14,859 nucleotides of DNA, taken from a virus (taxonomy: Duplodnaviria; Heunggongvirae; Uroviricota; Caudoviricetes). The first letter of the stretch is position 1; each line of letters starts with the position of its first letter. The stretch spans positions 1 through 14,859 of IMG/VR virus record IMGVR_UViG_2675903606_000023; one strand, written 5' to 3'. The position numbers were made by a program, and so were the translations under genes. The notes below the pieces were generated by a model. The model made no database searches and was not told the DNA's origin. It was given only the letters and a program-made list of their open reading frames with translations. Of this stretch, positions 3,849 through 9,712 are shown piece by piece.

Positions 3849-4430
3849 TTACTTAATATCTGTTTCGGATTGCATGCCATGAGTATTCATTTCGTTAATA
3901 ATTTCATCCAGAAGGATTTCAAGCCCTTCTCGACCCATATCTGAAAGAATGAAACCTTTATCAGGGGAAGTAGTGAGCATTTTCTGATAAAGAAACAGCG
4001 CTCTTCCCATTCCTTCAGCTTCGCCGTATTTTTGAATTAAATTCCATTCAATATACTGTTGTAAGGCAAATCGAATGGGGCCGGGATATATCGTCATAAA
4101 CCCATACATCCCGTTATATACCACGGCGTGTTCAGTTGTTCCGTGTTCATTCAGGATATCAATTGTGCCGTTCTTGTCTTCTTCTTCGTTGATGAATGCC
4201 GTCACATACAACCATCGCCACTGAGCAACCTTCATCTCAACCGGAAGTTTACCCAGTAATCCTGCTTCGTCGGCTTGCGCCAGACACTGAAGGATACGTA
4301 AACCTCGCACATTAGGAGTATCGAATTCTCCGGCATCCAGACGACGTATGGCGTCGTGATAATCAATCGTCATACTGCCAGTTCGTATACCATTGGCTGT
4401 TGCTTCAGCCTGGAATTCATCGTATTGCAT
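3849..4430 (-). CDS. Hypothetical phage protein (193 aa), function unknown
   Basis: Long ORF with GAGGAA SD about 9 nt upstream of ATG at 4430; coding-like composition; no family recognised by eye. Confidence 0.55.
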   Translation of the reverse strand: MQYDEFQAEATANGIRTGSMTIDYHDAIRRLDAGEFDTPNVRGLRILQCLAQADEAGLLGKLPVEMKVAQWRWLYVTAFINEEEDKNGTIDILNEHGTTEHAVVYNGMYGFMTIYPGPIRFALQQYIEWNLIQKYGEAEGMGRALFLYQKMLTTSPDKGFILSDMGREGLEILLDEIINEMNTHGMQSETDIK

Positions 4431-4435
4431 GATAT

Positions 4436-4630
4436 TTATTCCTCATCTTCATCTTCATCTTCATCTGCTGGTGCAATAACGTCATATCCTGCCTTTTCTG
4501 CAATAAACAGGAATGTTGAAAGAGTTCCTACAAGTTCATCGTCATGAACATGGCGAATGAATATTACTTTCCCGTTTTTGATGGTCAGCAATATTCTGGT
4601 TTGTTCGTGTTCTGCTGTTTTCTGATGCAT
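4436..4630 (-). CDS. Small protein with poly-acidic C-terminal tail (…ADEDEDEDEE)
   Basis: 64-aa ORF, GGGAGA SD 6 nt upstream of ATG at 4630; the C-terminal tail is encoded by the (TCATCT)x4 repeat at 4443..4466. Confidence 0.5.
   Translation of the reverse strand: MHQKTAEHEQTRILLTIKNGKVIFIRHVHDDELVGTLSTFLFIAEKAGYDVIAPADEDEDEDEE
4443..4466. repeat. Hexanucleotide tandem repeat (TCATCT)x4 encoding an alternating Asp/Glu tail
   Basis: Four perfect tandem copies read directly from the sequence, in frame at the 3' end of the 64-aa ORF. Confidence 0.9.
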
Positions 4631-4632
4631 TA

Positions 4633-4746
4633 TTATCTCCCGTATGCTTTACGCAGAAATAAGCAGGCAATATGCATGTAATTTTCACCGTATTGTGCAA
4701 TAAGGCAGGCGGTCTTGTGTGATGCCATATTCTTTATAAAAGTCAC
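4633..4746 (-). CDS. Candidate small ORF (37 aa from GTG 4746; 31 aa from ATG 4728), not in the supplied ORF track
   Basis: GGAGG (4758..4754) lies 7 nt upstream of GTG at 4746; the reading frame runs to a TAA at 4635..4633, 2 nt before the ATG of the 64-aa gene. Translation: VTFIKNMASHKTACLIAQYGENYMHIACLFLRKAYGR. Confidence 0.25.
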   Translation of the reverse strand: MTFIKNMASHKTACLIAQYGENYMHIACLFLRKAYGR

Positions 4747-4824: not shown

Positions 4825-5190
4825 TTATTGCGCTAATTCTTTTTCGGCAGCAGCTTTTGTATACTCACATGCAAAACTCAGAATTTCGCTGCCGAGTGTT
4901 TTCGTTTCGTGATTACTGGACATATGTAATACCTGTGTTGCATGCAATAAATGATAAACATTTACCGCAAATGAATCAGGCTCCAGACAAATGCCTTCGT
5001 AATTATCTTGCTGTGAGGTTGTTTCTGTCATTGCTCCTGAAGTGCATGCGAGCCTGTTTTTGACAATTCTCTTTTCTCTAATCACTATATCGGCAACATC
5101 TATTGCCTTTACAACCTCCGGGAGAAGTTCCGGGTTTGTATAATCAAAGTCATCAACATGGAGAACAGTTATGTTTTCGAACTTTTTCAT
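4825..5190 (-). CDS. Hypothetical phage protein (121 aa), function unknown
   Basis: ORF with AGGAAG SD about 4-5 nt upstream of ATG at 5190; no recognisable family. Confidence 0.55.
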   Translation of the reverse strand: MKKFENITVLHVDDFDYTNPELLPEVVKAIDVADIVIREKRIVKNRLACTSGAMTETTSQQDNYEGICLEPDSFAVNVYHLLHATQVLHMSSNHETKTLGSEILSFACEYTKAAAEKELAQ

Positions 5191-5318: not shown

Positions 5319-5867
5319 TCACCATTGGTATTGGTTCTTCCGCAGAAGAGCTTCGCGAGATAAGGGGCAAACTTGTTGAGATGCGTCATGGTGTTGCTGC
5401 TCCTCACTTTTTGGTTGCTCCGGAGGAGTAACCTCACCAGTTAACAGGCACATCGGATCGCAGCCAAGAATATTTGCCAGTGGGATAAGCATACTGATAG
5501 TTGGTTCATACTCTCCGCTCTCCCACTGGATGATAATTTCTTCATCGAGATCGAGCAGCCTGGCGAGTTCGGCGGTTGTTAAGCCGCAGGCTTCGCGTTG
5601 GGTGCGAAGGTTAACCAGCCAGCTTTCAGGGAAGGATTGTTTTTGTTGTGCAGGAGAAGCAGCAGATAGAGCATATTCATGGATAAATTCCATTACCTCA
5701 ATGCCCAGTTCCTTTGAGCGAGCACAATCCAGAAGATGGAATGTGCGTACAGCACTTAGCAAATTTGCAATATTTAATGCAAAGGAATCAAGTTCTAAGC
5801 CCTTAAGCGTAACACAGCCGCAGTTGATAAAATTAGTTGTTTCTGGAGTTGCTTTTAGTGTCTTCAT
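5319..5867 (-). CDS. Protein with C-terminal XRE-family helix-turn-helix domain and uncharacterised N-terminal domain (ORF open to TTG at 5897)
   Basis: HTH_XRE-like segment LRTQREACGLTTAELARLLDLDEEIIIQWESGEYEPTISMLIPLANILG in the C-terminal half; ATG at 5867 has a GGCGGA SD-like element upstream; first gene downstream of the PL-like promoter. Confidence 0.6.
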   Translation of the reverse strand: MKTLKATPETTNFINCGCVTLKGLELDSFALNIANLLSAVRTFHLLDCARSKELGIEVMEFIHEYALSAASPAQQKQSFPESWLVNLRTQREACGLTTAELARLLDLDEEIIIQWESGEYEPTISMLIPLANILGCDPMCLLTGEVTPPEQPKSEEQQHHDASQQVCPLSREALLRKNQYQW

Positions 5868-5920
5868 ATATCCGCCAACAATTTTAAATTGAATCAAATC
5901 AAGTTATAATTGATGGTGCG

Positions 5921-5949
5921 ATATTATGTTTTGGGAAACAGGCTGTCAA
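5921..5949 (-). promoter_or_regulatory. Candidate leftward early promoter (PL-like): -35 TTGACA, 17-bp spacer, -10 TAATAT
   Basis: Minus strand reads TTGACA (5949..5944), a 17-nt spacer, then TAATAT (5926..5921); flanked by two TCAA-N7-TTGA inverted repeats (5898..5914 and 5946..5960) that could be repressor operators. Confidence 0.55.
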
Positions 5950-6013: not shown

Positions 6014-6703
6014 CTAACCAAATCTGTTTATGTTGAATGGTACTGATGAGATCACTTTAGACTGGATATAAAGCAGAGCTAACCCCTCTTTTTCGATGCT
6101 CCATGGTTGATAATTGGGGTTATCAGATAACACCATGATTTTGCTTCCAATTTTTTGAAGCCTTTTCACGTAGCATTCTCCATCAAAACAAAATGCATAA
6201 ATACCATCGCCATCAAAATAAGTTACTGTCTTATCAAGAAAAAGAAGGTCGCCAGGTGAGATTGTGGGAGCCATACTGTCTCCTCTGGCGTTACCTATTT
6301 CTATATTTTTGAATGCCCGATTTCCAACAAGACGTCGGGCATATTCAGGATCAAGTTCTATTGAGCGCACTACATCTATCAAGTCACCACGGACATGAGT
6401 TCCATCACCGCAACTAAACTCAACATCAAGGACATTAAATACGACGCTATCTGTTCTTGTCTGGTGTTTCTCTTGCGAAGAAAAGGTTGGTGAGGAGTCT
6501 TCACCTAAGAACCAGGATTGTGGATAACCGCTAATCTCTGATAAATGCGCGAGCTTATCACTCCGTGGAAATGTTTTTCCTGTTGTCCAGTACTGCACTG
6601 ATTGCGCACTCACACCTAACTTGCGGGCCAGTTGAGCCTGAGTCCATCCTTTTGCTTTCAGCATCGCGGCTATTCGATTTTCCGTGTTTTTGACGTTCTT
6701 CAT
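6014..6703 (-). CDS. cI: CI-like prophage repressor (N-terminal HTH, C-terminal S24 LexA-like peptidase domain)
   Basis: N-terminal HTH (RIAAMLKAKGWTQAQLARKLGVSAQSVQYW); C-terminal autocleavage motifs GDSMAPTI (Ser) and YVKRL (Lys); AGGA SD 7 nt upstream of ATG at 6703 (ORF open to TTG at 6709); divergent from a Cro-like gene. Confidence 0.85.
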   Translation of the reverse strand: MKNVKNTENRIAAMLKAKGWTQAQLARKLGVSAQSVQYWTTGKTFPRSDKLAHLSEISGYPQSWFLGEDSSPTFSSQEKHQTRTDSVVFNVLDVEFSCGDGTHVRGDLIDVVRSIELDPEYARRLVGNRAFKNIEIGNARGDSMAPTISPGDLLFLDKTVTYFDGDGIYAFCFDGECYVKRLQKIGSKIMVLSDNPNYQPWSIEKEGLALLYIQSKVISSVPFNINRFG

Positions 6704-6709
6704 GACCAA

Positions 6710-8602: not shown

Positions 8603-8832
8603 TTCGCCGCCTCGTTAATTCTCTGTATCACCGATACAACCGTTGCCCCCGTGTGGGGCAGTGGTTCGCCACCAGCGACGGTCGCGTTCTGCGGGTTTGC
8701 CTGGTCAGCACCGAAAGCCAGAAAGTTGTGTGTGAATTACTGGGGCGTAACTACACCATCAGTTACCCACTAGTGGCGTTTCAGTCCGGAAAAATGTTTA
8801 AACGCCTGGGAGGTGGCTATGCGTCCGTCTGA
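8599..8832 (+). CDS. Small hypothetical protein (77 aa)
   Basis: ATG at 8599 overlaps the stop of the preceding gene (ATGA) and is preceded by GGGAGG at a 7-nt spacing; Cys- and Arg-rich; no family recognised. Confidence 0.45.
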   Translation: MIRRLVNSLYHRYNRCPRVGQWFATSDGRVLRVCLVSTESQKVVCELLGRNYTISYPLVAFQSGKMFKRLGGGYASV

Positions 8833-9712
8833 TCTTCTGCTCGATTTTGGGCATCCGGTTGCTTATTACCCTGGGCTCGTTAAATACATGGGAAGTCCGC
8901 ACGCTGTTATTTTCTTTGGTCAGATTTTTTACTGGCAGGATAAAGCACATGCAGCGGAAGGCGTACATAAAACGCGTGAAGAGATACAACACGAAACCGG
9001 ACTTACATTTGAACAACAGGCTGTAGCGCGTAAGCATCTTGTGTCCAGAGGCATTTTGGTTGAAACCAACAAGCGTCTTGAGCACAAAATGTTCTACCGT
9101 ATAGATTGTGAGCGCCTTAATGAAATTATCAATGAAAACAATCAGTTTTCCCGAAATGGGGAAACCCGTTTTCGGGAAACTGTAAAACCCAATTTCGCGG
9201 AGGAGGGAAAGCCTTCACCGCGGACACGGGAAACCCCTCGCCGCGGTGAAGGGAAAACCAATTTCGATCTTACAGAGAATACAACAGAGATTACTTCAGA
9301 GAGTACTACAGAGAGTAAAAACACTATTGGCGCATCCGCTGACGCGTCTGCACCAGCGCGTTCTGCCCGACAGGAATATTCACCGGAATTTGAACAGGCA
9401 TGGCAGGAATATCTCAAACGTGCTGGTGGCAATTCCAAGTCAGCAGCCTTCAAAGCCTGGAAAGCACGTATCAGGGAGGGAATAAAACCGGAGAACATGC
9501 TTGATGGCGTGAAGCGGTATGCCGCCTGGGTGCGTGTCTCTGGAAATACCGGTACCCAGTTCGTGAAGCAGGCGTCGACGTTCTTTGGACCCGATCGTCA
9601 TTTCGAGGAATCCTGGCAACAGCCAGCAGCCCCCGGAGGTGGGCGGGGCAAAAGCCTCCCGATCTCGGGATTCAGTGAACAGGACTACGGCTCAACGAAC
9701 TTCAACTGGTGA
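8819..9712 (+). CDS. Replication initiator / replisome organiser (lambda O-like functional position) with internal origin-like repeats
   Basis: GGGAGG SD 5 nt upstream of ATG at 8819 (ORF open to GTG at 8813); N-terminal winged-helix-like region; low-complexity linker encoded by iteron-like DNA (9147..9316); followed by a DnaC-like loader and DnaB-like helicase. Confidence 0.7.
   Translation: MRPSDLLLDFGHPVAYYPGLVKYMGSPHAVIFFGQIFYWQDKAHAAEGVHKTREEIQHETGLTFEQQAVARKHLVSRGILVETNKRLEHKMFYRIDCERLNEIINENNQFSRNGETRFRETVKPNFAEEGKPSPRTRETPRRGEGKTNFDLTENTTEITSESTTESKNTIGASADASAPARSARQEYSPEFEQAWQEYLKRAGGNSKSAAFKAWKARIREGIKPENMLDGVKRYAAWVRVSGNTGTQFVKQASTFFGPDRHFEESWQQPAAPGGGRGKSLPISGFSEQDYGSTNFNW
9147..9316. 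repeat. Iteron-like repeat cluster (GGGAAAC-type repeats and palindromes) followed by ACAGAGA-type repeats: candidate replication origin inside the initiator gene
   Basis: GGGAAA(A/G)C at 9159, 9174, 9205, 9228 and 9251; palindromic arms TTTTCCCGAAA/TTTTCGGGAAA and CACCGCGG/CCGCGGTG flank two of the copies; ACAGAGA-like repeats at 9271..9316. Confidence 0.55.

Follow-up and report, generated by a model that had tools for sequence, protein, structure and literature searches.

The window that we analyzed, a stretch of 14,859 nucleotides (nt), covers the left and central portions of a lambdoid Escherichia coli prophage. Its close relatives are integrated next to yecE/yecN, and they include Stx1a-, Stx2a-, and Stx2d-converting phages. 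The left operon of this prophage carries a small open reading frame (ORF) that ends in a hexanucleotide repeat. The features of the window that bear on this ORF, in window coordinates, are as follows.

75-1361: integrase (ORF list).
Also in the window: excisionase DUF1233, DUF4222, dATP/dGTP pyrophosphohydrolase, Ead/Ea22, and DUF4752 proteins (Pfam).
Also in the window: MarR-like winged-helix protein (Pfam).
3849..4430, minus strand: downstream 193-aa gene, phiP27 L06-like, phrog_1515 (function not known).
4436..4630, minus strand: FsoA/GfoA/Rem-like small antirepressor candidate (phrog_340), 64 aa (ORF list, PHROG, BLASTP, hhalign).
4439..4465, minus strand: codons of the acidic tail, D56 to E64 (DEDEDEDEE), from the translation; low pLDDT, probably disordered.
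4443..4466, minus strand: perfect repeat, (TCATCT)x4 as read on the plus strand, with GATGAA units in frame (Tandem Repeats Finder).
4466..4603, minus strand: conserved core, residues 10 to 55, with a beta-hairpin, a helix, and an AGY-V-xP motif (alignments, AlphaFold2).
4636..4641, minus strand: ribosome-binding site GGGAGA, followed by TAATA (4631-4635) and then the ATG at 4630-4628 (sequence).
4825..5190, minus strand: upstream 121-aa gene, phiP27 L08-like, phrog_5451.
5319..5897, minus strand: HTH_3 regulator whose DNA-binding domain resembles that of DicA; it opens the left operon and is a candidate cis target.
5921..5949, minus strand: promoter-like TTGACA-17-TAATAT at the position of lambda PL (consensus scan only).
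6014..6709, minus strand: CI-type repressor with HTH_3 and a Peptidase_S24 autocleavage domain (Pfam).
Also in the window: Cro/YdaS-like gene and Rha-family proteins (Pfam).

The position of the small ORF is four genes into the left operon, with the immunity region on one side and int on the other, and upstream of this operon stand the cleavable-type S24 repressor and the PL-like promoter. The 194-nt gap that precedes the small ORF contains no LexA box. The CI-type repressor of the window is 40% identical to FsoR, the repressor of Fels-1. A terminator-like hairpin with a T run (6002-5986, minus strand) directly follows the S24 repressor gene, and this hairpin with the promoter-like site after it has the layout of the lambda cI terminator and then PL. 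The first gene of the operon encodes an HTH protein that matched Pfam HTH_3 at 3.4e-10 and the NCBIfam DicA subfamily at 1.3e-8 and that is 35% identical to K-12 DicA over 71 aa. Its HTH lies at residues 97 to 148 of 192, an architecture unlike that of DicA or GtgR. Over 47 aa, the L08-like protein resembles this adjacent regulator, with 43% identity between the C-terminal half of the former and the N-terminal domain of the latter, and phrog_5451 and phrog_4587 cross-match between the two proteins. A small L08-like protein that shares the non-DNA-binding domain of the regulator could, by this similarity, be a decoy or a partner. On the other side of the immunity region, the rightward ORFs, including 8813-9712, read as replication genes from sequence alone. 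ORF 8813-9712 (plus strand) contains two adjacent tandem arrays at 9196-9317, with a 23-nt unit repeated 2.7 times and a 12-nt unit, TACAGAGAGTAC, repeated 3.9 times. The lambda ori lies inside gene O, and by analogy these arrays are probably the iterons of the prophage replication origin.

The small ORF (4436..4630, minus strand) has an ATG start and encodes the 64-aa protein MHQKTAEHEQTRILLTIKNGKVIFIRHVHDDELVGTLSTFLFIAEKAGYDVIAPADEDEDEDEE. It is an annotated coding sequence in RefSeq E. coli genomes, and it is a real gene. A preliminary description of this DNA had reported that the protein ends in ADEDEDEDEE and that four copies of TCATCT encode this tail, and the ORF list and Tandem Repeats Finder bore out both statements. 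The program placed a tract of period 6 at 4443-4466, with 4.0 copies of the unit TCATCT and 100% matches, and on the coding strand the tract and the end of the ORF read GAT GAA GAT GAA GAT GAA GAT GAG GAA TAA. The chance of a perfect 24-nt tract of period 6 in 14.9 kb is ~15,000 x 4^-18, or ~2e-7, and the tract at 4443-4466 is far beyond chance. Two further ORFs arise from the repeat, an antisense one with eight serines in a row (4356-4547, plus strand) and one in the +1 frame of the sense strand, MKMKMKMRNKYHAIR, and both look like mechanical by-products.

The end of the small ORF doubles as a signal for the next gene. The sequence GAGGAA at 4439..4444 (minus strand) supplies the last two codons of the small ORF and also the Shine-Dalgarno sequence for the gene downstream (GAGGAA TAA ATATC ATG), and the 193-aa L06-like gene is probably translationally coupled to the small ORF. 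The corresponding gene pair of phages phiP27 and ASU11 has AAGGAG in the tail codons and a stop codon that overlaps the next start (ATGA). A Shine-Dalgarno constraint may fix this end of the tract, with units being added upstream. The L08-L07-L06 gene order is common to phiP27 and ASU11; in other lineages the neighbors differ (ParE-like, ORF6N, and others) while the small gene persists.

We searched 5426 complete E. coli genomes with a 321-nt query around the ORF and obtained full-length matches in 203 of them, with matched spans that vary in steps of 6 nt. Among the best 60 of the 203 rows, spans of 351 nt (1 row), 333 nt (1), 327 nt (12), 321 nt (3), 315 nt (38), and 309 nt (5) occurred, and 49 evenly spaced full-length rows had spans of 351 nt (1), 333 nt (2), 327 nt (3), 315 nt (9), 309/308 nt (31), and 307 nt (3). 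When we read nine E. coli loci, the difference in span was wholly the number of GATGAA units. Their tails follow the form A(DE)nE, with n=2 in three loci, n=3 and n=5 in one locus each, n=6 in two, and n=9 in one, where the window itself has n=4. Adding IMG/VR prophage contigs to these nine hand-picked loci gave 83 loci, in which every n from 2 to 9 was present: n=2 in 38, n=3 in 24, n=4 in 4, n=5 in 6, n=6 in 3, n=7 in 4, n=8 in 1, and n=9 in 1. These samples are biased and contain clonal strains, and the numbers give a range and not a frequency.

Four haplotypes, each with flanks of ~815 nt that are identical among its loci, nevertheless carry two or three different n apiece, with the values {3,3,4}, {4,5,6}, {3,4}, and {3,5}, which shows that the tract changes faster than point substitutions accumulate. 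The tract is therefore a hypermutable simple sequence in the usual sense, a perfect short repeat whose copy number varies among otherwise identical sequences. An assembly artifact behind these differences is unlikely because the repeats are shorter than sequencing reads. We conclude that replication slippage in a perfect (GATGAA)n tract gave rise to the poly(Asp-Glu) tail and changes its length, and the earlier expectation that slippage would change the copy number in frame holds among the homologues. The commonest allele is also the shortest, n=2, and the same copy number occurs in the more divergent (90 to 92%) alleles of O157 and Stx phages; n=2 is therefore probably the ancestral state.

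A few alleles depart from this pattern. Rare imperfect tails occur in E. coli (P0002 and P0011), for example ADEDEEEDEDEDEE and ADEDEEE, so the tract also gains changes, either point or 3 nt, by which slippage would be interrupted. Another departure is the 307-nt class, a frameshifted pseudogene found in E. coli O145:H28 strain RM13516 (L007), where it is annotated as such, and in hits H82 to H84. The frameshift is a 1-nt deletion in the core and not in the repeat, and it accounts for 3 of the 49 evenly sampled full-length rows. The presence of frameshifted alleles in some strains indicates that the small gene is dispensable in lysogens. Within the E. coli lineage, pN/pS is ~0.3 to 0.6, on few substitutions, and together with the frameshifted alleles this ratio means that selection on the small gene in lysogens is weak.

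Ahead of the tail, the protein has a core that is conserved across the family, with the alignment pattern h-h-LTIENG-V...R...DE..AS.DTF...A..AGY.V.PP. Against PHROGs, the 64-aa protein matched phrog_340 (function not known) at 1.4e-22. Weaker matches to two "anti-repressor" families, phrog_4792 at 5.3e-6 and a second one at 5.4e-4, involved the C-terminal parts of those families. We found no significant match for the small protein in Pfam, NCBIfam, or PADLOC. Some family members have precomputed matches to Pfam PF27490 ("Rem"), part of them marked weak or faint, and there are none on P0001, the 90% cluster of the window protein. An exhaustive HMMER search with the 55-aa core returned only ~20 clusters, of 60- to 80-aa proteins, and a profile search collected 168 proteins in Escherichia, Klebsiella, Salmonella, Raoultella, Citrobacter, Hafnia, and Serratia. 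When every ORF of the fetched loci was searched locally with an HMM, no weaker copies that could be paralogues came up.

The link to proteins of known activity came through Fels-1. A tblastn search with a Klebsiella family member matched the Fels-1 ORF STM0898.2n, whose translation starts with MNSQQMM and ends with EAGIRFEEISNVG. The fsoA primers le154 and le162 encode MNSQQMM and EAGIRFEEISNVG (Lemire et al. 2011, Table S1; PMC3121763), and STM0898.2n is therefore FsoA. The 64-aa protein showed 46% identity to FsoA over 37 aa by BLASTP (pair E value of 1e-9), and when we compared the family profile with FsoA using hhalign, the probability was 98.3% with an E value of 1.3e-14. A combined profile of FsoA, GftA, a GfoA-like protein of SEN34, and Rem gave 97.5% and an E value of 5.7e-12. 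Taken singly, the SEN34 GfoA-like protein gave 89.7%, Rem gave 73.8% with an E value of 2.9e-5, and GftA gave a weak 19.6%; the aligned core in these comparisons is short, at ~40 to 45 residues. The core is thus significantly similar to that of an experimentally characterized small antirepressor, FsoA, and by these alignments the family assignment is well supported. The gene also has the general form of this family, being small (~60 to 85 aa), single domain, and located in a lambdoid prophage outside the immunity region. Members occupy two kinds of position. FsoA, phiP27 L07, and the window ORF lie in the left early operon, and Rem and a basic-tailed Salmonella subgroup (L102/L103) lie in the nin region, directly before the Q antiterminator.

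The AlphaFold2 model of the protein had a mean pLDDT of 86, with strands at residues 13 to 18 and 21 to 27 and a helix at residues 37 to 46, and its last block, the tail, had a pLDDT of 54. A sequence-profile search of the PDB gave nothing below an E value of 0.2, and Foldseek matched the model to no entry of the PDB or BFVD at E<=0.001; an uncharacterized homologue was its top match. A tandem-duplicated family member of 117 aa in Hafnia (P0036 and P0148) contains two cores, and this arrangement fits a dimeric working unit, as far as sequence can suggest one. The AlphaFold model of the two-core protein had a pLDDT of 49 and was too poor to use. In Hafnia alvei (L100/L101), the duplicated form lies at 4001-4354 of a small element that also encodes an integrase, HTH_17, ORF6N/ANT, and AAA_25 domain proteins, a capsid protein, and an S78 protease. 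This element resembles a phage satellite more than a complete prophage.

FsoA of Fels-1 is the closest of the characterized relatives, with the same core and a similar size, and it is followed by GfoA/GfhA/GftA and Rem. The place of fsoA matches that of the window ORF: both lie in the left early operon, and both lambdoid prophages have a cleavable CI-type repressor, the two repressors being 40% identical. FsoA differs from the window protein in having a 30-aa N-terminal extension, a C terminus of EEISNVG, and other neighboring genes. The Gifsy proteins GfoA, GfhA, and GftA are small and have a core of the NG-V...DE...GY-V-PP type, as does the window protein, and primer le163 gives the C terminus of GfoA as RRLGYRVTPPSDI. 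Unlike the window ORF, which is in the left operon without a LexA box, they are LexA controlled. Rem (b1561 of the E. coli K-12 Qin prophage; PF27490) aligns with the core through its C-terminal half. It differs in its length of 83 aa, its extra N-terminal half, its location in the nin region upstream of a Q-like gene, and its lack of an acidic repeat tail.

Two further kinds of system resemble the locus in part. The DNA mimics Ocr and ArdA and the antirepressor CarS are dense in Asp and Glu and antagonize DNA-binding proteins through a rigid, folded acidic surface, whereas the acidity of the window protein is in a short, probably disordered tail of variable length. The repeat itself resembles VNTR/MLVA and contingency loci in being a perfect, short-unit, intragenic repeat whose copy number outpaces point mutation. 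The difference lies in the unit of 6 nt, with which no change in copy number can turn the gene off. The tract is also outside the generic E. coli MLVA set, whose primers CVN001-017 and CCR001 had no match in the window.

We propose, at a probability of roughly 0.6, that the 64-aa protein is a small trans-acting antirepressor of the FsoA/GfoA/GfhA/GftA/Rem family and that its acidic tail is a tolerated, at most modulating, appendage. GfoA and GftA bind short noncleavable repressors, and the resulting complex leaves the DNA and has a size that fits an A2B2 heterotetramer (PMC3121763). In Fels-1, destruction of the cleavable FsoR derepresses fsoA, a gene of the left operon; FsoA inactivates GtgR, the Gifsy-2 repressor, and the induction of Fels-1 itself does not require FsoA (PMC3121763). 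Rem, which was found by PSI-BLAST from the Salmonella antirepressors GfoA and FsoA, is an antirepressor of DicA, and dicBp was derepressed 165-fold (PMC10448788). The layout of the window repeats that of Fels-1, with an FsoR-like repressor, a PL-like promoter, and a small gene in the left operon, and from this likeness we infer an antirepressor that acts in trans.

The small gene belongs to the leftward early operon of a prophage whose own repressor is a cleavable CI/LexA-type protein, and on this model the small protein would be made only after SOS-induced cleavage of that repressor, like fsoA in Fels-1. A dimer of the core, with its beta-hairpin and helix, would bind a dimer of a short noncleavable repressor of the DicA/GfoR/GtgR type and would take it off its operator. 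A co-resident prophage may supply the target repressor, or the target may possibly be the DicA-like HTH protein, whose gene lies three genes upstream; K-12-type dicA is present in 851 of 5426 E. coli genomes, a count that does not single out a target. As an outcome, the induction of other prophage elements would be coupled to that of this prophage. We infer the timing of expression, the antirepressor activity, the target, and the dimeric state of the small protein by analogy with the characterized members.

The core might not act in antirepression at all; it could, for example, be a partner of the L06-like or L08-like protein, and its similarity to FsoA would then reflect a small fold in common and not a common activity. 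The L08-L07-L06 order is kept in E. coli phages, the alignment covers a short region, no relative of the fold has been solved, and FsoA has no role in the induction of its own phage, all of which would suit such a function. We nevertheless think this unlikely, since the small gene persists in lineages with different neighbors, and two proven antirepressors, FsoA and Rem, fall in the same sequence family as the window protein. The preliminary description had instead suggested a function in the acidic tail, as a factor that acts on host DNA-binding proteins in antirestriction, as an antinucleoid protein, or as a mimic of the SSB tail. A small acidic protein from a phage early region would suit that proposal, but its core is specifically homologous to FsoA, GfoA, and Rem, whose targets are phage repressors and not restriction enzymes, nucleoid proteins, or SSB partners. 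Searches of PADLOC, Pfam, NCBIfam, and PHROGs gave no match to an antirestriction or defense family, neither these searches nor Foldseek (E<=0.001) gave a match to a DNA mimic by sequence or fold, and the tail is a low-confidence segment of the model. The tail of E. coli SSB ends in a hydrophobic tripeptide (...DDDIPF); the window protein ends in ...DEDEE and lacks the hydrophobic IPF terminus. The tail is also missing in syntenic homologues and in all characterized members; tailless homologues, provided that they share the function, are what the preliminary description had itself named as evidence against its proposal. We regard an action on host DNA-binding proteins through the tail as very improbable. 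Of the broader idea that the protein antagonizes a DNA-binding protein, what survives is that such an antagonist is probable; the assignment comes from similarity in the core, and the tail does not appear to be its basis.

Comparison across the family bears directly on the need for the tail. After the AGY-V-xP motif, family members have tails of 5 to 22 aa that are unrelated in sequence and contain no repeat, and outside the window lineage the net charge of the tail ranges from +3 to -7. The proteins phiP27 L07 and ASU11 gp52, encoded in the same gene order, end in PPAKEQTL, and FsoA (EEISNVG), GftA (MGSNN), and GfoA (PPSDI) likewise end without a repeat acidic tail. Moreover, a C-terminal 3xFLAG tag left FsoA and GftA unimpaired (PMC3121763). 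The absence of the repeat tail from syntenic homologues and from characterized members means that the tail is dispensable for the function of the family. By its distribution, the repeat tail is a recent extension specific to the E. coli lineage with yecE-integrated and Stx-converting prophages. Its absence elsewhere suggests that it is nearly neutral, and the acidic tail is most likely a tolerated or modulatory appendage.

The tail might instead have an active role. With the core bound to a repressor, the poly(Asp-Glu) tail might, as a DNA-mimicking arm, cover the DNA-binding surface of the repressor and help to expel operator DNA; slippage would then adjust how strongly or how widely prophages are cross-induced, in the manner of an in-frame contingency locus. 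In favor of such an arm are the net charge of the tail, -9, and its place directly after the repressor-binding core, the mild acidity of most tails of the family, and the way in which the antirepressors of the family work, by dissociating repressors from DNA (PMC3121763). The copy number also outpaces point mutations in the flanks, and expanded alleles persist in many strains. Weighed against these points are the activity of the characterized members without such a tail, the basic tails of some family members, the low confidence of the tail in the AlphaFold model, and the prevalence of the shortest allele, n=2. We regard a DNA-mimicking arm as improbable on this balance, and the full proposal, an operator-DNA-mimicking arm whose slippage gives heritable, reversible variation in the strength or the repressor range with which co-resident prophages are triggered, as decidedly doubtful. 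A neutral tail is the more likely answer than a functional one.

The repeat could also act at the RNA level, with the purine-rich tract tuning translation of the L06-like gene and the protein tail as a by-product. The last two codons of the small ORF serve the next gene as its Shine-Dalgarno sequence, at a distance of five bases from the ATG, and the overlapping gene pair of phiP27 and ASU11, with AAGGAG in its tail codons, is arranged in a comparable way. The spacing between the Shine-Dalgarno sequence and the ATG is unaffected by copy number, however, and the predicted folding and the accessibility of the Shine-Dalgarno sequence and the AUG were constant from 2 to 12 DE units (mfe of -74.5 kcal/mol and a probability of 0.34 to 0.36 that the Shine-Dalgarno sequence is unpaired). 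We rejected an effect of the repeat on the downstream ribosome-binding site because predicted folding and accessibility were the same at all copy numbers, and we give an RNA-level role very little chance.

What is new at this locus is an E. coli and Stx-phage member of the small-antirepressor family with a repeat-encoded polyacidic tail of variable length. A literature search found no paper that describes the variable acidic tail, phiP27 L07, or an acidic-tailed antirepressor. The analysis offers a candidate function for a widespread "hypothetical protein" whose gene is carried by 203 of 5426 complete E. coli genomes and also by Stx1- and Stx2-converting phages. The alleles from n=2 to n=9 on an otherwise identical protein are a natural allelic series for the effect of an acidic tail on an antirepressor, and the repeat is usable as a fast-evolving strain marker. 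If the tail is neutral, the finding reduces to an ordinary new family member; if the tail is a DNA-mimicking arm, the locus would be a contingency locus for prophage cross talk, including that of Stx-converting phages. If the protein is an antirepressor, it could link the induction of one prophage to the derepression of others, as FsoA does in Salmonella, and such cross-induction bears on the induction of Shiga toxin phages in polylysogens.
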